Below are positions 11,544-37,854 of a DNA stretch of 64,000 bases, in pieces; the first letter of the stretch is position 1; each line of letters starts with the position of its first letter. Where the stretch lies: positions 19,061 through 83,060 of the forward strand of contig JAFWKK010000014.1 of assembly GCA_017514235.1 (NCBI GenBank), given 5' to 3'. The position numbers and the translations under genes were made by a program. Source of the DNA: Kiritimatiellia bacterium (lineage in GTDB: Bacteria > Verrucomicrobiota > Kiritimatiellia > RFP12 > UBA1067). Below the pieces are notes generated by a model, which saw only the letters and a program-made list of their open reading frames with translations, did no database searches and was not told where the DNA came from.

Positions 11544-12947
11544 TCATCTCGTTTCAGCCGGCGCCGTGAACACGTCTTCCATCAGCGCATCCGCAAAGAT
11601 TGCGAGACCACGTGGATCTGGATGGTTAATGTCGTTGCACAGCAGCGTCATGTATGGAATCCCCTGTCGCCAAAGACGCCCCCACCGCTTCGATGCGTCC
11701 GCAAGGGCAATGTCGTGTTTCCGCGCAAAATCTCGAAGGCAGGAGACATACGGACGAGTGTCGTCGTCACAGCCCTTCTGCGAAATGAACTTCATTTGCT
11801 CAAGCCGCGAATAGTGCGGCGTCAGAATGATCCACTCTATGCCTTTTTTCTCAAACTGGGCGAGATATGCATCGCCATATGTCCGCTCCATGCTGTCAGC
11901 CGTTTGATAACATGAGAAATCATTTAAGAACTCGCTGACCACAAGATCCGGCTTCGCGTCCAGCACGGCCCGCCTGAAGTTCTTCGGGCTATCCGGCGGC
12001 GCCTTGAGAAAATCACTCGAATAATGCCCATCCCAGCCAGCAGTCACGAGTTCGATTTCAGCCATGGGGAACATCGGACGCAGCCTGCTGACGAACACTT
12101 CCTGCCAGCGCTTGCTCTTATCGGCCAGATAGTAGTCAAGCGTCTCTGTAACACTGTCGCCCCAAGCGAGAATGCGCACCTTTCCGCCATTCCTAAGTTT
12201 TGAGAACGTCTTCGGAATCAAACGAGAAGCCACCGTGTTGCCGTAAGGGTCGATGGTCTGCTGGCGGGGATACGACGCCTCAAGCACTGGAAAAACGTTA
12301 TCATCAGTCAGCCTCTTCGTCCGCGCATCGACATAGACATTAAGAATCCGCCGTTCGCATGCCGCAGTCTCAGGTGGCACCGGTGTCGCCACATGTGGCG
12401 TACCGATCCTATAGACGAGCGTTCCCCTTTCGTCCAAGACAACCGAGTCAATGCGCCGCTGGAGATAGGCGTAGTCGGCAACCACCGAATCTGACGCATC
12501 AATGTGTCCGTTCTCAAGCCTGCCGACAAGTCCCCAGGCTCCGTCGATCTCATAATCCACGCCCTGCAGCAGCGTGACGCCTTTTGCATCTCGAATGCGA
12601 ACAGACTCGGGCACGAGCGCGAACTTGACCGAACAGCCGAGTGCATAGACACCCTTGAACTGCCTCCCGCGAAAACACTCGTACTTGCCAGGATCGAAAA
12701 CCGGCAGGCCTTCGTAGCGCTCGTTATCCACCTCAATGCACGGCGGCGGCGCGACGACAAAGGCCCGGCTCCGTCCATCCACGGAGACCGACAAACACCA
12801 ATCCCTATCAATCGACCAATCCGTCACACAGGTGCCAGTCAAGGCTACGGATGCCATAATGGAGGCCAGCGCCCCTGCTATCTTCATACTCAAAATGCCT
12901 CTCCGATCTATGCTACCGCATTCATGCCGTATCTGCTTCTCGGACAT
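11544..12947 (-). CDS. SGNH/GDSL-family hydrolase (esterase) with N-terminal extra domain
   Basis: Block I is VRILAWGDSVTE and block V is DINHPDPRG. An alternative SD-preceded start at 12887 gives a lipoprotein-like signal peptide (MKIAGALASIMASVALTGTC). Confidence 0.75.
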   Translation of the reverse strand: MSEKQIRHECGSIDRRGILSMKIAGALASIMASVALTGTCVTDWSIDRDWCLSVSVDGRSRAFVVAPPPCIEVDNERYEGLPVFDPGKYECFRGRQFKGVYALGCSVKFALVPESVRIRDAKGVTLLQGVDYEIDGAWGLVGRLENGHIDASDSVVADYAYLQRRIDSVVLDERGTLVYRIGTPHVATPVPPETAACERRILNVYVDARTKRLTDDNVFPVLEASYPRQQTIDPYGNTVASRLIPKTFSKLRNGGKVRILAWGDSVTETLDYYLADKSKRWQEVFVSRLRPMFPMAEIELVTAGWDGHYSSDFLKAPPDSPKNFRRAVLDAKPDLVVSEFLNDFSCYQTADSMERTYGDAYLAQFEKKGIEWIILTPHYSRLEQMKFISQKGCDDDTRPYVSCLRDFARKHDIALADASKRWGRLWRQGIPYMTLLCNDINHPDPRGLAIFADALMEDVFTAPAETR

Positions 12948-12959
12948 TCTTGCCCGTTT

Positions 12960-14921
12960 CTATCGAACAGTGACAGAAAAGCCAGGCGCATCAACAATCT
13001 GTGAATAACGTATCGTGCCATCGCCCGGCGCACGGTAGCCTTCAGGGATAAAGAGCACGTCCTCTGACCTGTCGATACGCTTGAACAACGAGCCGCCGCC
13101 AGCAGTAGCCACGCCGACGAAGCCCGGAATAGTCTCTCCCACCTTCAGTACTTTTACCCTTTTGCCCGCCAGCTGCTTCGCATAGCCTGTGCGCACCGCG
13201 ATCCGGCCGCCACCACCAGGCGCCTGCGAACCGACGTCCAGCTCGTTCACCGCATCGCCGCCTTTTGCCATAATCATTCCTGTGCCAGCGAAAGTCTCTC
13301 CACAAAGATAAATACCACCGCCAGAGCCGGCGTGCGGACGGAAAAGATTGCCGCTGCCTGCAATGGCACTGGACCCGCAGCCAAAACCATTGGCTGTCAC
13401 CACGCCATCCACGGTCACGGCTCCACCCGCTTCAACGAAGATCAGCCCTCCGCCTGAACCACCGCTTTTCGCCACCTGTTCACCGCCTCCAGAACCGCAC
13501 ATATCCGGAAGCCATTCATCGCCATATGTCCTGCCTCGATCTTCTTCCAACCCATCCCACCCAGGGGCTCCGCCACATCCGCCCATGCCGCCATAGCCGC
13601 CAGAGCCCATGCCGCGTCCCGCGTCCGGGCCAAAGCCACTTTCGTGATTGACGTTGAAACTGGTAGAGGCATGGTAGCTGCCGCCAAGTCCGCCACGACC
13701 ATCAGCAGAAACGACACCCCCCGCCTCTACGGTAAAGTTACCGCCAATGGAAAAACGCGGCGCACCGAGATTCTCTTGATCACACGTCGCGATCAAACGC
13801 CCGCCGTCGTGCACAAACACCGAACCAGACACTACCACTTCGCCGCCCCACGTCGTCACGGCGTTTGTCTCTGCAGCGTTGATCTCAAGCGCACCGCCAT
13901 TCCGCAGCACGAGGTCGCCGCAGATTGAAATCTTGTTTGGCACGCGACCTGCCCAAACCTCGGCCGTCAGCATACGATTCGTCATGCAGACGCCACCGAC
14001 GTCGAGCCTCGCATCGCCATCTATCGTAAGATTGCCGTCCACCGTCACCGTAAAGCCTTCCTCGTCCGAACGTACATGTCCATGCGTCATGGTCGTGTCA
14101 CTATCGAATGTCAGCGAAGGCACCCCCACAAGACGCCCTGAAAGACCACTCCCGAAAAGCTGATATAGAAGCGTCGGGTTGGACAAGTAAACCGTGCCCG
14201 GTTCCGCGCCGACACAGTTCCAGTCCGAATCGGCAAAGCCATAAGACCTTGTCCCCGTTCCTCGGCCCTGATACGTGCCTTCCGCAGCCGAGACGTAAAG
14301 TCCGGCCGCCGGATTTGCCGCCTGTGCAGCCGCCTCCGTATATATGGCAATGCGTCCGCCGCCAGCGGGAAAGTGATCGAATCCGGCTTTGCGGTTGTAA
14401 TAGCGAATCAGCGGCAACTCTGGTGATGCACCCTTGCCGCCCTCGGCCGCGATAACGCCCAGTCCGCCGACAGACGCAGCGTCAATCCAGATGCTGCCGC
14501 CTGCGCCAGCCGTCTCGTAGTGCGACCAGTTGGCGCTCGTGGAGCCACCATTCGCGAGGATCGAGCCGTTGACCGTCACCCGTCCTGTCGCCTCGATACG
14601 CACGATGCCGCCACCGGAGACATCGAAACCGCCAGCACAGCTCTGCCCGCTCGAACCTGCCGTCGTCGGCTGTCGTGCATCGCCATACGGATACTTTATG
14701 GTCTCAGTATAGTTGAGTTCCGAGAATGCGCCCCGGCCACCATGCGTCGCACCGGCATACCACCATCCCGGCTGGCCTGGGCCAGAACCGTCACCACTAT
14801 TTGACGTGCCGTCGACAGGCCGCCATCCGCGGCAGCTGACGTCGATAGCCCCCCCCCCGCCATGACCATCAGATCTACACACTTCAGCCACACGCGTGAA
14901 GGCAACTCCCCTTCCGCACAC
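12960..14921 (-). CDS. C-terminal part of giant Gly-rich beta-helical surface protein (separated from the N-terminal part by a frameshift at the G10 tract)
   Basis: G-rich beta-helix-like repeats. As assembled there is no signal peptide and only a GTG start. The reading frame upstream of the tract continues the 14696-16945 product if one G is added. Confidence 0.65.
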   Translation of the reverse strand: MCGRGVAFTRVAEVCRSDGHGGGGAIDVSCRGWRPVDGTSNSGDGSGPGQPGWWYAGATHGGRGAFSELNYTETIKYPYGDARQPTTAGSSGQSCAGGFDVSGGGIVRIEATGRVTVNGSILANGGSTSANWSHYETAGAGGSIWIDAASVGGLGVIAAEGGKGASPELPLIRYYNRKAGFDHFPAGGGRIAIYTEAAAQAANPAAGLYVSAAEGTYQGRGTGTRSYGFADSDWNCVGAEPGTVYLSNPTLLYQLFGSGLSGRLVGVPSLTFDSDTTMTHGHVRSDEEGFTVTVDGNLTIDGDARLDVGGVCMTNRMLTAEVWAGRVPNKISICGDLVLRNGGALEINAAETNAVTTWGGEVVVSGSVFVHDGGRLIATCDQENLGAPRFSIGGNFTVEAGGVVSADGRGGLGGSYHASTSFNVNHESGFGPDAGRGMGSGGYGGMGGCGGAPGWDGLEEDRGRTYGDEWLPDMCGSGGGEQVAKSGGSGGGLIFVEAGGAVTVDGVVTANGFGCGSSAIAGSGNLFRPHAGSGGGIYLCGETFAGTGMIMAKGGDAVNELDVGSQAPGGGGRIAVRTGYAKQLAGKRVKVLKVGETIPGFVGVATAGGGSLFKRIDRSEDVLFIPEGYRAPGDGTIRYSQIVDAPGFSVTVR

Positions 14922-30300: not shown

Positions 30301-30804
30301 GAACACCCACATCAGGAAAAGCGCGTTGAGCGAGTATATCTCGACGATCGTCGCCTGCGACCACTCCACCGGCGAGAACGCGAACGTAAGCGCCCCGCCT
30401 ACACCGCCGCCGAAGCAGAGCCAGGGGCTGCTCGCGGACATGCCGGAGCCTTCCTCCCCTTCGCCGGCGACGAAGTCGTTTGCACTGCGGCAGATCAGCA
30501 TAGCCGTGCAGCCGGCTGCGAACGCGCCGAACGTAGCCGAGCAGAGGCTTACGGCCCAAGCCGGCGTCGGGTGGCCCATGTATGTCACCCACGAGAACGC
30601 CTTACAGAACATCCAGCAGCAGAACGTCCAGAACGGATAGCCCGGCGGGTGCGGCACCCCGAGGTTCGCCGCCGCCGTCGCAAGCTCACCGGAGTCCTCA
30701 AGTCCGACGGATGGGCCGAGCGTGAGGAAATATACGACAAAAGTGATGAGTGTGGCGGTCCAGAAAGCCGCCCAATCAAGTTTGGTGAAGAATCTTTCCC
30801 TCAT
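27322..30804 (-). CDS. DUF2723 (GT117/TMEM260-like) polytopic membrane protein with C-terminal TPR repeats
   Basis: The N-terminus is typical of DUF2723 (LITFVVYFLTLGPSVGLEDSGELATAAANLGVPHPPGYPFWT). Many TM segments are present. The tail is TPR-like (YREAGQAFREACLLYP...). Confidence 0.8.
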   Translation of the reverse strand: MRERFFTKLDWAAFWTATLITFVVYFLTLGPSVGLEDSGELATAAANLGVPHPPGYPFWTFCCWMFCKAFSWVTYMGHPTPAWAVSLCSATFGAFAAGCTAMLICRSANDFVAGEGEEGSGMSASSPWLCFGGGVGGALTFAFSPVEWSQATIVEIYSLNALFLMWVFLLSYRWMRKPSDKMLFMTAFVFGLGLTNYQVLLFAIVPLAILIAMRDIGLFRDVFIYLMPVGMTWQVLKIGSLMRADRFMHADVINKHEAIVGQAVTTPSTTVLVIAVVALVCSIAAAAVLKRRGDAERARKAVLYGGGSAAALMLLSSFVFVSKNTWSGITAPVAPLIEPTRYALIAACVAGSVVAATLAALRDDERLLAPKSLKLIGIAAAFALAAVVFAAAVPSAGDGGYAGEKFPWGKSTFMFWMMVAVLFALTAFTRKGLCFAIPVAGLHLAVFTLLAHGAMNGLTHPQSWWFGWPIAWNFVLLALAWVTLPNGRSVAGAAFFAQLGISFYVYMPIVSDLRNPPMNWGYPRTWDGFKHAIMRGQYEAIGVPSFPSVGAFLDFMGTQMKHYFGDVMVQFTDLLVPLALVPFVAAKWVVGKAQCKAFWQWMSAALACFLMMSGLLILLANVKGDVQDGFIQKVKFISSHAMIALWIGYGLVFAAVLALRRCRARATKRVALALAAAMIVVCAAYPIVQNYTDDRLVFELGGSEQNGHTFGWQFGAYQLEDAKAIREQLVADEEPLPDPDWPEPMEPFSIFFGGTDPGRFVPTYMIYSALFRPDVYLITQNALADDTYMKVERDLYGDEIWIPSSEDSAEAFNIYVDEVQRGVRPANGDLKIENGRVQVTGALGVMEINGILTKMMHDHDRLRHSFYVEESYVIQWMYPYLSPHGLIMKLNADRTPYDAQRAAKDMDFWDWYFRRLLDDPMYRRDFAGQKSFSKLRAAIAGLYQRQGRYREAGQAFREACLLYPASPEATFRYAQECLLPFRRWDAALDLMAYTDRIDPRNKRTENLKGYIARVRALTSEMERIEAKRRETGGKLDDADAFSLVHCYAEMGRVREAAQILHGLADRLSDAQSLRYASTLFMEAKLDADAEKTLNRYLGMKPTEDAFAWADLAKLQHRAGRKQAAQQSFIQGYNIDAQGLFQKLQKDQELYEIAAPLFRRK

Positions 30805-30813
30805 AGTTTGCGT

Positions 30814-30819
30814 ATTATA
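30814..30819 (-). promoter_or_regulatory. extended -10 (TGATATAAT) 9 nt upstream of ATG 30804
   Basis: The minus strand reads GATTATGATATAATACGCAAACTATG. The same 16-mer occurs at the rpmE promoter. Confidence 0.5.
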
Positions 30820-31146
30820 TCATAATCCGCGCCTAACATGAGAGACTCAAAGGACGCCGCACCGTCAACCTTCGGGGCGTGAAGTCCAGGAGCAACTGCT
30901 AGTTTCCCTTGCAGTTCCTACGGGTCGTAATTCGTGGTTCCGGTCCCGTTCACGCCGCCTCCAGTCGCGCCGCCAGCTTCCAACCGTGGGACGCATACCC
31001 GATCCCCTCCACAGTCCTCGCTCGGGCGCTCCGCGACCTCACCTTGTCCGAGAACCTCCCGAGCATCTCCGCCACGAACGCCGCGCTCCCGAGTATCTTA
31101 CCGCACGAAACCTGCGCTATCCGCCTCATCAGCCGCCCCTCCTCCA

Positions 31147-31159
31147 GGGGACTGTCCCC
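31147..31159. repeat. palindrome GGGGACTGTCCCC (copy 1, inside the transposase CDS)
   Basis: Read directly from the sequence. Confidence 0.9.
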
Positions 31160-31591
31160 GGTTATGACGCCAAGGATTGAGAGCAGCCACTCCCGGCAGC
31201 GAACCGCGAACGCGTTCCCACGCCTCGCCGCTCCGACGGTGTTCCACGCGTAGTCGGACGTGCGCACGGCGAGCCCCGCCCTCACAGGGTTCATCTCCAC
31301 GTACGCCGCGCACCTCCTGAGGTACTCCACCCCGCCAACGAGCGTGCTCCTGAACCTGCCCTCCCACAGAGTCCCTGGAAAGGGCCTGCGACTGCGGAAG
31401 AGACGCCCGAACTCCTCCTTGAACGTCTTCACGAACTGGCTGAGGTCGTGCATTCGCGCCCGCAGCCTGCCGAGCTCTGCCTCAGCGGCGGCCGCGTGGC
31501 CACGCTCGCGTAGGCCGCAGAGGCGCGCCTCCAGCCGCAGGGACGCCCTGCCACCCATGAGTACCGCATAGCGACGCAGCACCTCCGACTC

Positions 31592-31604
31592 GGGGACAGT
31601 CCCC
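31592..31604. repeat. palindrome GGGGACAGTCCCC (copy 2, inside the transposase CDS)
   Basis: Read directly from the sequence. Confidence 0.9.
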
Positions 31605-31861
31605 TCGTGACAGGGGACCTGGACGACCACGTGGAAGTGGTTGTCCATGACGGCGAACGCACCCACGTTCACCCCGCTGAACTCCGCCGCACGCTCGAGG
31701 GCGTCCAGCATGTCGTCCTTCACTCCCGCGCCAGCGAGCAGCATCTGGCGGCCCGATATCCGCGAGGTCACGTGGTGCAGCGCGTCGCGGTCCGGGAACT
31801 TGATCCTCATTGTCCTTGCCATTCGAATCTCTCCTTTCGCTTGTGGTTGTCGCGTCCCGGC

Positions 31862-31874
31862 GGGGACTGTCCCC
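31862..31874. repeat. palindrome GGGGACTGTCCCC (copy 3, transposase 5' UTR)
   Basis: Read directly from the sequence. Confidence 0.9.
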
Positions 31875-31887
31875 GCGGAACGTGAGC

Positions 31888-31893
31888 ATAATA
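31888..31893 (-). promoter_or_regulatory. extended -10 (TGGTATTAT) for the transposase gene
   Basis: The plus strand reads ATAATACCA, 66 nt upstream of ATG 31822. Confidence 0.45.
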
Positions 31894-31956
31894 CCACATT
31901 TAAGGAAGAGAATTATTTCCCGACGATTAGCACCCCTACCCGCCACGACGCATCGT

Positions 31957-31981
31957 CCCCCCCCCCCCACCACCACCACCA
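31957..31981. repeat. compound simple-sequence repeat: C12 followed by (CCA)5
   Basis: Counted directly: catcgtCCCCCCCCCCCCACCACCACCACCAgcg. Confidence 0.95.
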
Positions 31982-31984
31982 GCG

Positions 31985-31997
31985 GGGGACTGTCCCC
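31985..31997. repeat. palindrome GGGGACTGTCCCC (copy 4, upstream of the transposase promoter)
   Basis: Read directly from the sequence. Confidence 0.9.
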
Positions 31998-32213
31998 AAC
32001 AGCCCCCATGCAGGCGCAGGACGCGGCGGAGATCGCGGCGTGGGAGCTGAACATGCTGCCCGTGGACGGCGTCGGCGTCATGGTCGTGAAGGAACTGACG
32101 AGCGCGATGCTCGACGAGAGGACGATTTCGTACGCGGTCCGTCTGGAGGTCCAGACGACGCTTGGCGATCCACTTGACAGCGGAAAGGAGTAGGCGGTAT
32201 ACTACGCGGGGAG

Positions 32214-32351
32214 ATGAATGAACTCACCAGAGAGTCGATCGACAGGATCGTAGGCAAGATTTGCGACGTGATCGAGATTGCAGTCATGATCGCATTTCTG
32301 CCTCTCTTGGCATTCTTCATCTACATTACGTTGAACACGCCCGTTCAGTGA
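32214..32351 (+). CDS. 45-aa single-TM small protein (hypothetical)
   Basis: My translation is MNELTRESIDRIVGKICDVIEIAVMIAFLPLLAFFIYITLNTPVQ. A GGGGAG lies just upstream. It is too short for the ORF track. Its 3' end overlaps the convergent 32345 gene by 7 nt. Confidence 0.3.
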   Translation: MNELTRESIDRIVGKICDVIEIAVMIAFLPLLAFFIYITLNTPVQ

Positions 32352-33091
32352 TGCCGCCGCCAGGCGATGGCGGACAGCAACAAGGTTGACATAAACTTCG
32401 ACGCCCAGACCCGCAAGGCCAAGGGCGACGTACGGGCGTCCGCCGCAGACTGCTCGGCTGCGGAGGCCTTGTCCTTCAGCGCCTTGCAGGCCGCCACGGC
32501 CGCGTCTTCCGACGCGTCCTCGGCAAGGCCGAGCTCTGCCATCAGTTTCTTCATGTGGATTTCTCCTTTTTTGTTCTTGACCTCCGCTGCACGCGCAGCG
32601 GCTAGATTGGAAAGCTCCTTGAAGTGCGGGGTGTTCGTCATGCCGATCGACATGAGCCGCACGGGGCGGTAGTACCTGCCGTCCTTCTCGCAGGCGAACG
32701 CCGGCGAGCGGTTGAGGAGCGTCTTCGACTCCCACAGCTCGCGGCCCTTCGGCGTAAACTCCCAGCGCGTCCAGATGGATCCGTCCGGTTCCTGGCGGAT
32801 GTCCTTGGCCCAGGCCATCGCGGCGCTCGACTTCGAGCGGTCGAGGGAGTAGTGCTCTTCGTCGACGAGGATTCCCGGCCATTGCGGATCGCGTGCAGCG
32901 GCCTTGAAGGACTCGATCACGGCCTTTGCAGTTGCCTCGTCGAAGACGAACTCGGCGTCCTTGGCGGCACCTTCGACGGTGCCGCCCACGGGATAGCGCC
33001 CGTACGGCGGGAACGTCTGGAACCAGGTGGCGTTCGTCGCCGGGTCGTTCCTGAACTCGCGGCACGCCGCGAAGATTGCTGTCGTTTTCAT
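32345..33091 (-). CDS. Mu gpI-like phage head protease/scaffold protein, probably C-terminally degenerate (prophage remnant)
   Basis: VDEEHYS and IGMTNTPHF motifs resemble the Mu-like prophage I protein family. The scaffold-like tail is KKLMAELGLAEDASEDAAVAACKALKDKA. I trimmed the start to ATG 33091. Confidence 0.6.
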   Translation of the reverse strand: MKTTAIFAACREFRNDPATNATWFQTFPPYGRYPVGGTVEGAAKDAEFVFDEATAKAVIESFKAAARDPQWPGILVDEEHYSLDRSKSSAAMAWAKDIRQEPDGSIWTRWEFTPKGRELWESKTLLNRSPAFACEKDGRYYRPVRLMSIGMTNTPHFKELSNLAAARAAEVKNKKGEIHMKKLMAELGLAEDASEDAAVAACKALKDKASAAEQSAADARTSPLALRVWASKFMSTLLLSAIAWRRHH

Positions 33092-33212
33092 TTCGCTGTT
33101 GCCTTTCCGAAGTCGGTTGTGGTATAATTCACGGCAGCTAGGGGCGAAACGGTCCGATGCGCCAGTAGCCCGCAGCCTGGCGAAGACAGCCGGCAATGTC
33201 TTCTAACCTTCT

Positions 33213-33656
33213 TCATCTCTTCCCCTTCCTGTTCGGAACGATTGTGAATACGTGTTCGATCGTGTCGCTTCCCTCTTCGGATATGGCAATCATCCCGAAG
33301 TTCTCAAATGCCTTTGAGTAGAGCGTCCTGCCTTCGAACCCCTTGTGGTCTTTCTCCACCTTGGCAGGGCTGGTCACTGTGTTGACGGCAAACATCAGCC
33401 GGGTCTTGCGTGCGTCCGCGTCGCCTTCAAGATGCGTATCGAGATGCACAAGCAGCTTCTTTCCAAAGCCAACCTGCTTGCCCTCCGGGTTCTTGACGTA
33501 GAACCCCTCGGTGAGCGCAGCCGTGGCGTCGGCAGCGCTGATCATCTTCGGCTCGCCTGACATGATTCTCTTCACCAGCTCGCTGTGCTTGTGGTTGGGG
33601 TGGGTGCAGCCTGCATCGCCGATGAACCCGCCGTCCTGTGGGCAGTGCTCGCTCAT
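33213..33656 (-). CDS. phage-associated hypothetical protein (position and size fit a MuF-associated toxin-like module; unproven)
   Basis: Protein-like composition. The start is coupled to the upstream ORF through an ATGA overlap at 33653-33656. Confidence 0.5.
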   Translation of the reverse strand: MSEHCPQDGGFIGDAGCTHPNHKHSELVKRIMSGEPKMISAADATAALTEGFYVKNPEGKQVGFGKKLLVHLDTHLEGDADARKTRLMFAVNTVTSPAKVEKDHKGFEGRTLYSKAFENFGMIAISEEGSDTIEHVFTIVPNRKGKR

Positions 33657-33952
33657 TTCGACATCATCTCCTCGTAGAGTTCTTCGGCTTGCTCCTGGGT
33701 AATTTCGCCGCCCGGGGACTTTGGGGACTTCGGGGACGATGGGGACGATTCCCCATTCCCCGTTCCCCTCAACTTTTCAACTTCCTCCGCCATCGCCTCG
33801 GCCATGGCGTCGGCGAGGACGGTGGCCGTAACGGGATCGGCGGGCAGCAGGTCCGGCAGGTCGGCCAGGAACTTCTCGCAAGCCTCCTTCGAGAAGTCTT
33901 TAAGAAGCTCTTGAACCGCCTTCGCGGCAGGAGGCCCACGAGACATTACCAT
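33653..33952 (-). CDS. hypothetical protein with low-complexity SPK linker (phage remnant)
   Basis: The ORF is translationally coupled to 33213-33656. The probable start is ATG 33952 or 33946 rather than 34021. Confidence 0.4.
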   Translation of the reverse strand: MVMSRGPPAAKAVQELLKDFSKEACEKFLADLPDLLPADPVTATVLADAMAEAMAEEVEKLRGTGNGESSPSSPKSPKSPGGEITQEQAEELYEEMMSK

Positions 33953-34002
33953 TTCCAAATTCAAACCAAAAAAGCCGTCCGCACCAACGAATAATATTTT
34001 GG

Positions 34003-34008
34003 TATAAT
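34003..34008 (+). promoter_or_regulatory. extended -10 (TGGTATAAT) for paaK-ACT
   Basis: The plus strand reads TTTTGGTATAAT, 28 nt upstream of ATG 34037, with a GGAAGGA SD in between. Confidence 0.55.
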
Positions 34009-34036
34009 ACCGGCAAATCAATCCGGAAGGACAAAT

Positions 34037-35351: not shown

Positions 35352-35750
35352 ATGACCATCAAGCAACTGTCAGTGTTCCTGGAGAACAAGCCCGGCCAGC
35401 TTGCCGGCATAATGAAGACGCTTGCCGAGGCTGACGTGAACATCGTCACGCTGTCGCTCGCCAACGCGCCGGAGTTCGGCATCGTCCGCATGATTGCCGA
35501 CGACCACGTCAAGGGCGCTGACGCGCTCGCGAAAGCCGGCTACGCCGTGCGCGAAACCGAGGTCGTCGCCGTAACCGTGCCGGACAGGCCGGGTGGCATG
35601 GCGGACCTCACCGCGAAGCTCGACCGCGCCGGCGTCGACATCGAATACTCCTACGCCTACTCGCTCGGACACGGGGAGAAGGCCATCCTGGTATTCAGGT
35701 TCGACGACAACGCTAAGGCCGAGGCCGCCCTCGCCGCCGAACAGACCTAA
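35352..35750 (+). CDS. ACT-domain protein (amino-acid-binding regulatory domain pair)
   Basis: Two ACT-like halves are present (QLSVFLENKPGQLAGIMKTLAEADVNI; VAVTVPDRPGGMADLTAKLDRAGVDI). This is the usual partner of PaaK in anaerobes. Confidence 0.85.
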   Translation: MTIKQLSVFLENKPGQLAGIMKTLAEADVNIVTLSLANAPEFGIVRMIADDHVKGADALAKAGYAVRETEVVAVTVPDRPGGMADLTAKLDRAGVDIEYSYAYSLGHGEKAILVFRFDDNAKAEAALAAEQT

Positions 35751-35760
35751 TGCGCAGACA

Positions 35761-36129
35761 CTAACGTTTGCCTGCGCCGACCTTGAGTCCGGCCAGGCGA
35801 ACGGAAAGCCTGGCAGAGGACAGAATCATCTCGAACAGCCGGATGTACTGGGCCTTCTCGGCCTCGTAGCGCGGCGGCACCCGCATCTTGCGAGCATCCG
35901 CCAGCGCCATCTCGGCCTGCGGAAGGTACTTCGCAATAACCGGCAGCTTTTCAGGCGCCGCCTCGTACTCGGCGCCGAAGCTCTCGAAGACCGGCATGTA
36001 CTTCTTCGTCACGGGACCGAAGAACCCCGCCGCCCTGTCCAGCTTCTCCTGAGGCAGCATGGACGACACCATCTGCTCAACGGGGAGCGCGCAGAGCATG
36101 AACGCGGCGACTGCGAGAAGCAACTTCAT
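35761..36129 (-). CDS. hypothetical secreted protein
   Basis: Signal peptide MKLLLAVAAFMLCALP. It lies directly downstream of glnS. I recognised no family. Confidence 0.5.
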   Translation of the reverse strand: MKLLLAVAAFMLCALPVEQMVSSMLPQEKLDRAAGFFGPVTKKYMPVFESFGAEYEAAPEKLPVIAKYLPQAEMALADARKMRVPPRYEAEKAQYIRLFEMILSSARLSVRLAGLKVGAGKR

Positions 36130-36138
36130 GGGGCGCCC

Positions 36139-37854
36139 TCACGCCGGCTTGTAGCCGTCCTTCAGCGAACACGTGCGGTTGAAGACCGGGGCGCCCGGCT
36201 TCGAGTCGAACTCGTCGGCGACGAAGTATCCGGTGCGTTCGAACTGGAAGCGGTCAAGCCCCTTCGCCTCGCCCAGCGCCGGCTCGACGTAGGCAGAGAC
36301 GACTTTCAGCGAATCCGGATTCAGATACTTCAGGAAGTTGTCAGGACCGTCCTTCATAGGATCCTTCTCCGTAAAGAGCCGATCGTAAAGGCGGACCTCG
36401 GCCTTGACGCCCGTCGCGCAGTCAACCCAGTGGATGGTTCCCTTCACCTTGCGCCCGTCCGCCGCGTTGCCGCCCCACGACTGCTCGTCCCAGGTGCCGT
36501 GTATCTCGACGACCTTGCCGGAACCGTCTTTCACGCAGCCAGTGCAACGGAATATGCACGCACCACGCAGGCGGACCTCCTGGCCGGGTGCCATACGGAA
36601 GAACTTCTTCTCGGGAACCTCCATGAAGTCGGAGCGGTCGATCCAGACCGTGCCTCCGAACGGCATGCGCCGCGTACCTGCCGACTCGTCGAGCGGATTG
36701 TTCGGCAGCTCCACGTCACGCGCGCCTCCCGCCCAGTTGTCGACGACGACCTTAACAGGGTCCAGAACCGCCATGCGCCGCGCAGCCGTGCGGTTCAGCT
36801 CCTCGCGGACGCACCACTCGAGAAGCGCGGGGTCGCTCTCCGACTCCACCTTCGACACGCCTATGCGGTCGCAGAACTCGCGTATCGCCCCGGGCGTATA
36901 GCCACGCCGGCGCATTCCGCACACCGTCGGCATGCGCGGATCGTTCCACCCGGAGACCACGCCCTCCTGCACCATCTGCAGCAGGAGACGCTTCGACATG
37001 ACCGTATACGTGAGGTTGAGGCGTGCGAACTCGCGCTGCTGCGTGCGTATCTTGACGCCGTTCCTGACTGGCAGGAGCCCCTGCTCGTCCATTCGGTCGA
37101 CGACCCAGTCGTAGAGCGGGCGGTGCACCTCGAACTCCAGCGTGCACATCGAATGCGTCACGCCTTCCAGCGCGTCCTCGATCGGGTGCGCGAAGTCATA
37201 CATCGGATACACGCACCACTTGTCGCCAAGGTGGTAGTGGGCGACATGGCGGATCCTGTAGATCACAGGATCACGGAAATGAATGTTCGGCGAAGCCATG
37301 TCGATCTTGGCGCGAAGGCACCACTCGCCGTCGGCGTACTTGCCGTCGCGCATCTCGCGGAAGATGCGCAAGTTGCGCTCGGGGTCGGTGTCGCGGGACG
37401 GGCTGGGCTTCCCCGGCTTCTCCGGCACGCCGCGGTACGCCTTCCACTCCTCCTGCGTAAGGTTGCAGCAGTAGGCCTGGCCGCGGCGGACAAGCTCTTC
37501 CGCAATGGCGTACATCTTGTCGAACATGTTAGACGCATTGTAGAAGCCGGGCTCGCCGGAATCGCCTTCGCCGGACCACTGGAAGCCGAGCCAGTTGATG
37601 TCGCGCTTGATGTTCTCGGCGTACTCGTCGGACTCCTTCGTCGGGTTCGTGTCGTCGAGGCGAAGATGGCATTCGCCGCCGAAGAGCTTCGCCATGCCAA
37701 AGTCGACGCACACGGCCTTCGCGTGCCCGATGTGAATGTAGCCGTTGGGCTCTGGCGGGAAGCGCGTCACGACCTTGCCGCCGGTCTTGCCGTCGGCAAC
37801 GTCCTTCTCGATCCACTGCCTGAGAAAATGCCTGGAAGTGTCTGATTCGCTCAT
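36139..37854 (-). CDS. glnS: glutamine--tRNA ligase
   Basis: TRFPPEPNGYIHIGHAK (HIGH motif), VMSKR (KMSKS motif) and an N-terminus collinear with E. coli GlnRS. Confidence 0.97.
   Translation of the reverse strand: MSESDTSRHFLRQWIEKDVADGKTGGKVVTRFPPEPNGYIHIGHAKAVCVDFGMAKLFGGECHLRLDDTNPTKESDEYAENIKRDINWLGFQWSGEGDSGEPGFYNASNMFDKMYAIAEELVRRGQAYCCNLTQEEWKAYRGVPEKPGKPSPSRDTDPERNLRIFREMRDGKYADGEWCLRAKIDMASPNIHFRDPVIYRIRHVAHYHLGDKWCVYPMYDFAHPIEDALEGVTHSMCTLEFEVHRPLYDWVVDRMDEQGLLPVRNGVKIRTQQREFARLNLTYTVMSKRLLLQMVQEGVVSGWNDPRMPTVCGMRRRGYTPGAIREFCDRIGVSKVESESDPALLEWCVREELNRTAARRMAVLDPVKVVVDNWAGGARDVELPNNPLDESAGTRRMPFGGTVWIDRSDFMEVPEKKFFRMAPGQEVRLRGACIFRCTGCVKDGSGKVVEIHGTWDEQSWGGNAADGRKVKGTIHWVDCATGVKAEVRLYDRLFTEKDPMKDGPDNFLKYLNPDSLKVVSAYVEPALGEAKGLDRFQFERTGYFVADEFDSKPGAPVFNRTCSLKDGYKPA

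Follow-up and report, generated by a model that had tools for sequence, protein, structure and literature searches.

Here we examine a 64,000-nucleotide stretch of DNA (the window) from a Kiritimatiellia bacterium (assembly GCA_017514235.1, contig JAFWKK010000014.1, positions 19,061 to 83,060 of the forward strand), in which an intact gene for a Y1 HUH transposase has copies of a perfect 13-nt palindrome, GGGGACWGTCCCC, both within it and upstream of it. The gene occupies 30950-31822 on the minus strand and encodes 290 aa plus a stop; its Pfam match, predicted structure and homologs mark the product as TIRYT-like. Exact matches to the palindrome are found at 31147-31159, 31592-31604, 31862-31874 and 31985-31997, just where a preliminary description made from the letters alone had placed them, and the 64 kb window holds no further match even when one mismatch is allowed. 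The four copies fall within ~850 bp, compared with a genome density of one per ~160 kb; across 100 dinucleotide-preserving shuffles of the window the number of matches averaged 0.01 and never reached four, bearing out the earlier view that the clustering is not due to chance. Each 13-mer is made up of a pair of inverted half-sites, GGGGACAG and CTGTCCCC, that overlap.

Two copies are internal to the gene: that at 31147-31159 (coding offset +663, frame 0) encodes GDSP at residues 222-225, and that at 31592-31604 (coding offset +218, frame 2) encodes (E)GTVP at residues 73-77, in agreement with the peptides first read there. The copy at 31862-31874 belongs to the 5' leader, 40-52 nt ahead of the ATG, where its flanks lengthen the stem, and the outermost upstream copy (31985-31997, 163-175 nt upstream of the ATG) forms the right-hand edge of the cassette in this genome; equivalents of this outermost copy are kept in the orthologs of a congener, G006. 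The open reading frame (ORF) spans 30950-31897 on the minus strand, and the ATG at 31822 is its most likely start because a Shine-Dalgarno sequence read from the DNA, AAGGAGAG (31829-31836, minus strand), precedes it by 6 nt and all homologs begin MART... at this point. The leader copy sits just downstream of a putative extended -10 element, TGgTATTAT (31888-31896, minus strand). Since a two-hexamer sigma-70 scan upstream of the gene, in which extended -10 elements are unscored, returned no site, the promoter is proposed from this element only, and the preliminary placement of the leader copy between promoter and Shine-Dalgarno sequence is putative to the same degree.

Folded as single-stranded DNA (ssDNA), the palindromic core forms a 5-bp stem with a 3-nt loop at -4 kcal/mol, and the leader copy together with its flanks reaches about -9.6 kcal/mol. 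In the predicted RNA fold the leader copy becomes a stem at the 5' end of the leader, leaving the Shine-Dalgarno sequence unpaired. A search of Rfam over 30500-32500 yielded nothing at threshold, the only match being at chance level (21.5 bits), and a terminator scan found no intrinsic terminator at the locus; no Rfam family or terminator explains the palindrome copies.

The transposase resembles TIRYT proteins rather than canonical RayT

The predicted protein matches Pfam Y1_Tnp (E 8.9e-8; 32.7 bits against a cutoff of 23), and it reaches 58.7 bits with the NCBIfam equivalog REP_Tyr_transpos (RayT), below the cutoff of 80. Its HUH motif is NHFH at residues 61-64 (H62/H64), followed by W153-E and the catalytic Y174 within YVEMNP; H62, H64, W153, Y174, N178 and P179 are invariant in an alignment of 43 homologous sequences, and homologs are plentiful in gut and rumen metagenomes. 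An AlphaFold (AF2) model built from that alignment has a predicted local distance difference test score (pLDDT) of 91.8 and a predicted template modelling score (pTM) of 0.90. Its best Foldseek match is 4ER8_A, the E. coli TnpAREP bound to a hairpin of its repetitive extragenic palindrome (REP), at a template modelling score (TM) of 0.73 and E 1e-6, followed by ISDra2 TnpA and IS608 TnpA; a profile search of PDB sequences agrees (4er8, E 1.3e-6). In the model, a helical insertion of ~50 residues separates the HUH strand from the Tyr helix, and a long tail of ~95 residues beyond the catalytic core ends in a small C-terminal domain of mixed alpha/beta structure. Even at E up to 1, Pfam gave no match for the C-terminal 89 residues, whether to Bac_DnaA_C, HTH_23, HTH_28 or any other family. 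Both palindrome-encoded peptides are modelled in peripheral positions: residues 73-77 form a loop between the HUH strand (62-69) and the next helix, and residues 222-225 fall in the only low-confidence linker (218-235), just before the C-terminal domain.

On these features the gene is an intact Y1 HUH transposase of class 2. NHFH, WE, YVEMNP, the ~50-residue helical insertion and the long tail fit subclass 2.1/2.3 (PMC6006769), which is equivalent to Bertels' group 1 and to what Di Nocera et al. call TIRYT proteins (PMC6006769, PMC3733652). The identification as a REP-associated RayT in the preliminary description therefore stands for the Y1 HUH transposase and falls for the canonical RayT, as the NCBIfam RayT score stays under its cutoff and no GT[AG]G foot accompanies the repeat (see below); we accordingly refer to the protein as TIRYT-like and 2.1/2.3-like.

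The palindrome is enriched in the genome and across the genus

The genome from which the window comes (G000 below, other G numbers denoting congeners or members of other families of the order) is a 3.96 Mb assembly of 82 contigs and 60% GC, belonging to a lineage of Kiritimatiellae metagenome-assembled genomes (MAGs) from goat, sheep, horse and human gut. It contains 25 exact copies of the 13-mer, compared with ~0.4 expected, and 48 copies within one mismatch. The 11-nt core has 28 matches, 25 of them extending to the full 13-mer, and palindromes assembled by reordering the bases of the same five-base half-site occur only 0-12 times, as opposed to 28 for the real core. Beyond this genome, the motif is present in 17 of 24 congeners at up to 66 copies, compared with 0-3 in other families of the order, and a reversed-sequence control gave 0-1 per genome. 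Tandem palindromes are frequent, with a spacing of 21-24 nt. The GT[AG]G foot is absent from the flanks of all 25 copies, the only flanking signal being a preference for T at position -1.

The arrangement of copies is conserved around homologous genes

We fetched ~60 loci whose homologs are 30-90% identical and located, for each gene, the palindromes that match exactly or with one mismatch. Most members of the window-type clade (62-90% identical) carry at least one copy 150-500 nt upstream, another that precedes the ATG by 41-53 nt, two internal ones at +218 and +663, and a further copy 34-65 nt past the stop; the G008 ortholog (62% identical) retains only the copy at +657. The leader position, 41-53 nt before the ATG, is kept in this orthologous clade and also in one distant clade. 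In the paralog clade, comprising a gene on G000 contig C63 and its relatives (~37-47% identical), an imperfect variant, GGGGACAGRCCCC, lies ~200 nt upstream, its reverse complement GGGGYCTGTCCCC lies 56-83 nt downstream, and an internal copy at ~+614 has either the GGGGYCTGTCCCC or the perfect form. Because the upstream variant (GGGGACAGR) and the downstream variant are mutually reverse complementary, the outer copies of this clade are true terminal inverted repeats. A third clade, of ~380 aa (loci L021, L022 and L028), has the perfect form on both sides, whereas a more distant clade (29-36% identical; L024-L027, L029, L030) has no palindrome within ~1.8 kb of the gene. Copies on both sides are found in the paralog clade and in orthologs from G006 and from a MAG deposited as 'uncultured Verrucomicrobia bacterium'.

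The 13-mer or a one-base variant is, in short, present in a conserved layout at orthologous and paralogous loci as well as enriched elsewhere in the genome, both of which support the REPtron-like arrangement that the preliminary description had proposed. The central A/T was considered as an orientation marker of the perfect form and rejected, being inconsistent between orthologous copies; only the imperfect variants orient. Separately, the 74%-identical orthologs of the 'uncultured Verrucomicrobia bacterium' MAG (L043-L047) carry, ~60-110 nt before the ATG, an iteron- or operator-like array in which an inverted gttacg is followed by three cgtaacatt(c) units in tandem; the array lies just upstream of a -10-like GATAAT and is absent from the window copy.

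Most copies lie in frame within genes, and the DNA sequence is what is conserved

Fully 15 of the 25 copies lie in frame within genes and 10 are intergenic, a tally that rules out a mainly intergenic location and so turns aside the intergenic bias for which the preliminary description had proposed a check. The in-frame copies are distributed among the transposase gene (2), folP (3; C30:4650-5519), mfd (3; C30:45213-48311), birA (3; C28:~104100-105000), mnmE (1; C39:1631-2917) and genes for a BspA-like surface protein, a secreted protein and a GH78-like enzyme (1 each). They are read as GTVP in 11 copies, GLSP in 3 and GDSP in 1, and in mfd a 21-nt (7-codon) tandem period yields GTVPADT-GTGPANV-GTVPGRF. 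Alignments of folP and mfd from 16 congeners place the copies in variable loops, where some constitute 7-11-codon insertions; palindrome-free species have unrelated loop sequence at the same sites.

Several observations distinguish constraint on the DNA from constraint on the peptide. The GTVP peptide is no commoner than its own permutations, yet its palindromic encoding is ~100-fold enriched: in a partial set of ORFs, 7 of 27 GTVP peptides are encoded by the exact palindrome, versus 0.07 expected from codon usage. Orthologous folP copies are identical at 13/13 bases where only 35-61% of identical-residue codons are conserved. Furthermore, homologs at 37-90% identity hold a palindrome at the place equivalent to +663, before the C-terminal domain, and this copy is read in frame 0 (GDSP) in one clade and in frame 2 (G[TPS]VP) in the other. 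The frame change between clades, the codon enrichment and the folP identity together indicate that the conserved entity is a DNA element and not a peptide.

The prevailing variant follows the resident transposase clade

Congeners differ in which form of the repeat prevails. Perfect copies outnumber GGGGYCTGTCCCC copies in G013 (66/13), G017 (64/10), G006 (56/22) and G000 (25/12), and the reverse holds in G004 (2/94), G011 (0/65), G014 (0/42) and G003 (7/17). Where transposase genes were recovered, the genome-dominant form is the form that flanks them: L001/L013 (G000, G006), L021 (G017), L022 (G013) and L028 (G001) carry the perfect form, and L007 (G004), L011 (G011) and L005 and L040 (both G003) carry the GGGGYCTGTCCCC form. 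G014 has GGGGYCTGTCCCC genome-wide although only transposase fragments were found in it. The switch extends to orthologous coding sites: folP and mfd sites that have the perfect form in G000, G006 and G013 read GGGGTCTGTCCCC in G014 and G003, and G004 shows the same GGGGTCTGTCCCC switch at the mfd sites. With the same variant at the transposase flanks, genome-wide and inside folP and mfd, the dispersed copies thus evolve in concert with the transposase clade of their genome. We regard this concerted switch as the strongest indirect evidence for a functional link between enzyme and repeat.

Related cassettes are present in multiple copies

The window genome itself has one cassette copy and one 44%-identical paralog. 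Five contigs of G006 carry an 89%-identical ortholog, and four of these contigs terminate within it; the segment in common, alignable by blastn at 87-90% identity, corresponds to a conserved cassette at window positions 30926-31951 (minus strand). The G006 copies are 94-97% identical to one another over their shared parts, with palindrome arrays on both flanks, and none lies in the neighbourhood of the window copy; no empty site was found. The 'uncultured Verrucomicrobia bacterium' MAG has four copies of a 74%-identical ortholog, mutually 84-99% identical. In its two more diverged copies the repeat unit begins at the -277 palindrome, while its two near-identical copies have ~75 bp more upstream in common, including a -339 palindrome. 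The unit ends just after the +54 palindrome, and one copy diverges at the very centre of that palindrome. Metagenome homologs are often found on ~1.2-1.3 kb contigs, as expected of a collapsed repeat.

Related Y1 transposase genes are more numerous still in two other families of the order, with 39 copies in G032 and 21 in G038 (L090-L099). The G032 elements are bounded by 24-bp inverted repeats (GTGTCAGACTGTTACACTTGACAT), and the G038 elements by a direct-repeated hairpin, CTTAAA-TAGTCTGTCCC-TTTAAG, with TAGTCTGTCCC in the loop. In this order, then, members of this transposase group are active insertion-sequence-like elements. G038 additionally has 76 copies of GGGGYCTGTCCCC, some of which flank a further transposase clade.

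Surroundings of the cassette and other palindrome-associated sequences

The window cassette is neighboured by a gene for a TMEM260-like glycosyltransferase and, on its other side, by the small remnant of a Mu-like prophage. Beside the cassette, at 32008-32193 (plus strand), is a 61-codon, 5'-truncated phage-gene remnant recognised by its homology to an ORF on contig C37; it matches the 3' part of that longer ORF at 82% DNA and ~97% protein identity, and the homology starts at 32013, 15 bp beyond the outermost palindrome. Window positions 32008-32431 correspond to C37:3465-3881 of G000, where the longer phage gene is intact, and also to C7:12019-12118. Further along, 32345-34021, which includes a Mu-like protein I homolog and small ORFs, resembles a prophage remnant ending at the cassette. 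Within a phage-remnant ORF, at 33714-33768, four GGGGAC half-sites at 9-nt spacing are followed by three TCCCC-type half-sites, and this run, which may be related to the palindrome family, encodes a Ser/Pro-rich linker on the minus strand.

Upstream of the transposase gene, a C12-(CCA)5 tract at 31957-31981 separates the promoter region from the outermost palindrome. Its length varies among same-species metagenome assemblies, where the versions read from the other strand are (TGG)4G11, (TGG)5G12 and (TGG)5G10; in one same-species assembly the outer palindrome has the point variant GGGGCCAGTCCCC. A 53-bp stretch of the promoter region (31885-31937; …acatttaaggaagagaattatttcccgacgattagcacccc) recurs at 89% identity on G000 C82:43035-43087 upstream of an unrelated gene, and may be a shared promoter module or a cassette remnant.

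On contig C16 of G000, two single AAA_14/DUF4143 ATPase genes (12516-13831 and 35619-37195), whose GC content at third codon positions (GC3) is below that of their neighbours, are each bracketed on both sides by palindromes in direct orientation. The second palindrome pair has ~45 nt of identical flank (ccacgaaatacacgaaaa...ggcctgacgc-palindrome-aatca). These ATPase genes may be cassettes mobilised or targeted through palindromes.

Discussion

We consider it probable, at roughly three chances in four, that the window locus is a TIRtron/REPtron-type unit, in which an intact gene for an ssDNA (Y1 HUH) transposase is accompanied by copies of its cognate recognition sequence. In the mechanism that we propose, a dimeric enzyme would bind the motif, most likely as the small hairpin formed in ssDNA at replication forks, and would cut and rejoin the DNA beside it by means of Tyr174 and an HUH-bound metal; hairpin recognition and cleavage/ligation through the tyrosine are taken here by analogy from the biochemistry of IS608, ISDra2 and TnpAREP (PMC6006769). 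The cassette of ~1.0-1.3 kb bounded by the outer copies can be copied, as the multi-copy cassettes of two other genomes show. Solo and tandem copies (21-24 nt apart) would be seeded around the chromosome and kept uniform, some of them landing in protein loops, where 21-nt units would keep the reading frame. The window cassette has lost its downstream copy and now abuts the truncated phage gene; it is probably a fixed, one-ended copy that remains a source of the enzyme. Lying where the mRNA leader begins, the leader copy is probably also an operator or 5' hairpin controlling transposase expression; such autoregulation, or a role as a 5' stabiliser, is plausible given that its position is kept in the orthologous clade and in one distant clade.

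Several points weigh against this interpretation. As ssDNA the core forms only a weak hairpin, and a protein dimer could bind a perfect 13-bp palindrome just as well on duplex DNA. Copy numbers (25 exact, 48 within one mismatch) are low for a REP family, and 60% of copies are intragenic. Two genomes rich in the motif, G022 (58 copies) and G002 (34), have no close transposase homolog, both being incomplete MAGs (82% and 84%). The window cassette itself has no downstream palindrome, only two upstream and two internal ones. Finally, the six same-species metagenome assemblies show no presence/absence polymorphism of the cassette, which is at the same place in all of them; the window locus appears to be fixed.

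It is tempting, if rather doubtful, to go further and regard the 13-mer as a minimal mobile unit in its own right, made of two overlapping end motifs without cargo. The resident enzyme would then write 21-24-nt modules into intergenic DNA and into the loops of housekeeping proteins (folP, mfd, birA, mnmE) and keep the copies uniform, orthologous intragenic sites would switch variant together with the transposase clade, and the two copies in the transposase gene would serve self-regulation or self-processing instead of being passengers. If this were true, the system would be an active ssDNA editing system that reshapes protein loops.

Among other explanations, the weak ssDNA hairpin and the perfect symmetry of the 13-bp palindrome, which fits a symmetric dimer, invite the thought that the palindrome serves chiefly as an operator on duplex DNA, bound by a dimeric regulator that may be the transposase C-terminal domain. 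Copies near the gene would then only regulate it, and the others would have come about through point mutation and selection, not transposition. One copy does overlie the predicted transcript start, and its position, 41-53 nt before the ATG, is conserved; the folP copy of G008 apparently arose by substitution in a conserved PGATP segment. We nevertheless judge this explanation improbable, as it accounts neither for the duplication of cassettes with boundaries at palindromes, nor for tandem arrays in protein loops (7-11-codon indels), nor for the genome-wide variant switch that matches the resident transposase; moreover, the C-terminal domain belongs to no recognisable DNA-binding family. Comparably improbable is that palindromes are preferred targets for cassette insertion, not its ends or cargo, and are themselves spread by slippage or by an unrelated enzyme. 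REP sequences are known targets of several insertion sequences (background cited in PMC3733652), some cassette copies have extra palindromes beyond their boundaries, and the unrelated AAA_14/DUF4143 ATPase genes are likewise bracketed by palindromes. Yet the copies at -41/-53, +218 and +614/+663 lie within the unit and are conserved across clades, and the variant in or beside each transposase clade is the dominant variant of its genome, a match for which a mere target has no need.

Chance, base composition or peptide-level selection for GTVP/GDSP in a GC-rich genome can be set aside almost entirely. At 60% GC other G/C-rich palindromes, such as TCGCCG-N-CGGCGA (23 copies), are indeed frequent too. 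The counts, however, already refute this account: shuffled windows contain 0.01 matches, reordered half-site palindromes stay at 0-12, the reversed control gives 0-1 per genome, and the GTVP peptide is not over-represented although its palindromic encoding is enriched about a hundredfold.

If the TIRtron/REPtron-type interpretation is right, this uncultured gut and rumen lineage of Kiritimatiellae offers a clear cognate pair of enzyme and very short, perfectly palindromic recognition sequence, together with two natural variants that track two transposase clades, multi-copy cassettes and copies in essential genes. What the enzymes recognise, and whether the enzyme keeps dispersed copies uniform, are directly testable now. 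The repeats also matter for MAG annotation, since they break assemblies, leaving ~1.2 kb contigs, and add lineage-specific loops to conserved proteins.

Comparison with known systems

The closest relatives are the TIRtrons. Di Nocera et al. 2013 described GGGGWSAS as the consensus of inverted repeats flanking TIRYT genes in several phyla, together with clustered, self-complementary terminal inverted repeat (TIR) families (PMC3733652), and each of our half-sites fits that consensus. As in TIRtrons of subclass 2.1 and the derived subclass 2.3, the transposase has NH[YF]H, W[EQ], Y[IV]xxNP and a long C-terminal tail, the flanks carry GGGGWSAS in inverted orientation, the repeats are moderately abundant and often in dimers or clusters, and the gene is multi-copy in some genomes; the helical insertion of ~50 aa between the HUH strand and the Tyr helix is shared with subclass 2.3. 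The present system differs in that a single perfect 13-nt palindrome unites the two end motifs, copies occupy fixed positions in the gene and its leader, and there is no detectable Bac_DnaA_C or HTH-type C-terminal domain of the subclass 2.1 kind. No group of REP-transposase-like proteins is larger than subclass 2.1/2.3 (Bertels group 1), and Quentin et al. 2018 found no associated REP-like repeats for it (PMC6006769), whereas repeats are present here.

The E. coli REPtron (TnpAREP/RayT with REPs and bacterial interspersed mosaic elements, BIMEs; 4ER8) supplies the best structural and sequence match in the PDB, and is alike in placing a Y1 gene amid short palindromes that are also dispersed on the chromosome, with a separate repeat variant for each transposase type. 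Unlike it, the system described here has no GT[AG]G foot, a much shorter stem (5-6 bp), tens rather than hundreds of copies, most of them not extragenic, a gene that is not single-copy across the genus, and a protein below the RayT cutoff. A canonical REPtron has >100 copies that are extragenic; here there are 25 exact copies, 15 of them in genes. The presence of copies inside the transposase gene, which the preliminary description had considered unusual, is less so than it seemed, for the tnpAREP genes of subclass 2.4 (Cyanobacteria/Bacteroidetes) also contain in-frame repeats in peripheral loops (PMC6006769). Those genes belong to another subclass and their REPs are long and GTAG-footed; here a second copy follows the catalytic core, and diverged clades keep both positions.

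The insertion sequences of the IS200/IS605 family (IS608, ISDra2, IS200) share the Y1 HUH fold and form multi-copy units bounded by small hairpins. IS200 carries a leader stem-loop that controls its own expression. They differ (subclass 1.1) in having Y...Q in place of Y...NP and about 150 aa in place of 290, whereas the boundary hairpin here is also found as many solo copies. The tnpB partner frequent in that family is missing too, as a cassette of ~1.0-1.3 kb lacks room for such a second gene. Cyanobacterial HIP1 is an 8-mer present in thousands of copies. Like HIP1, the Rickettsia palindromic elements (RPEs) and intragenic REPs (e.g. in Opitutus terrae; PMC3733652) are short palindromes tolerated in frame in housekeeping and repair genes; RPEs differ in being about 100-150 bp long, and CGTC-tagged repeats in having no known transposase.

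Our literature search found no paper joining Kiritimatiellae, transposase and palindrome, and found TIRYT only in PMC3733652 and PMC6006769. Each single feature of the locus has precedent, as illustrated by GGGGWSAS-flanked TIRtrons, by the in-frame repeats of subclass 2.4 and by REP-type elements inside housekeeping and repair genes of Opitutus, Rickettsia and Thauera (PMC3733652). The novelty lies in the host lineage, the very compact, perfect palindrome, its fixed intragenic positions in a 2.1/2.3-like gene, and the concerted variant switch at orthologous coding sites.

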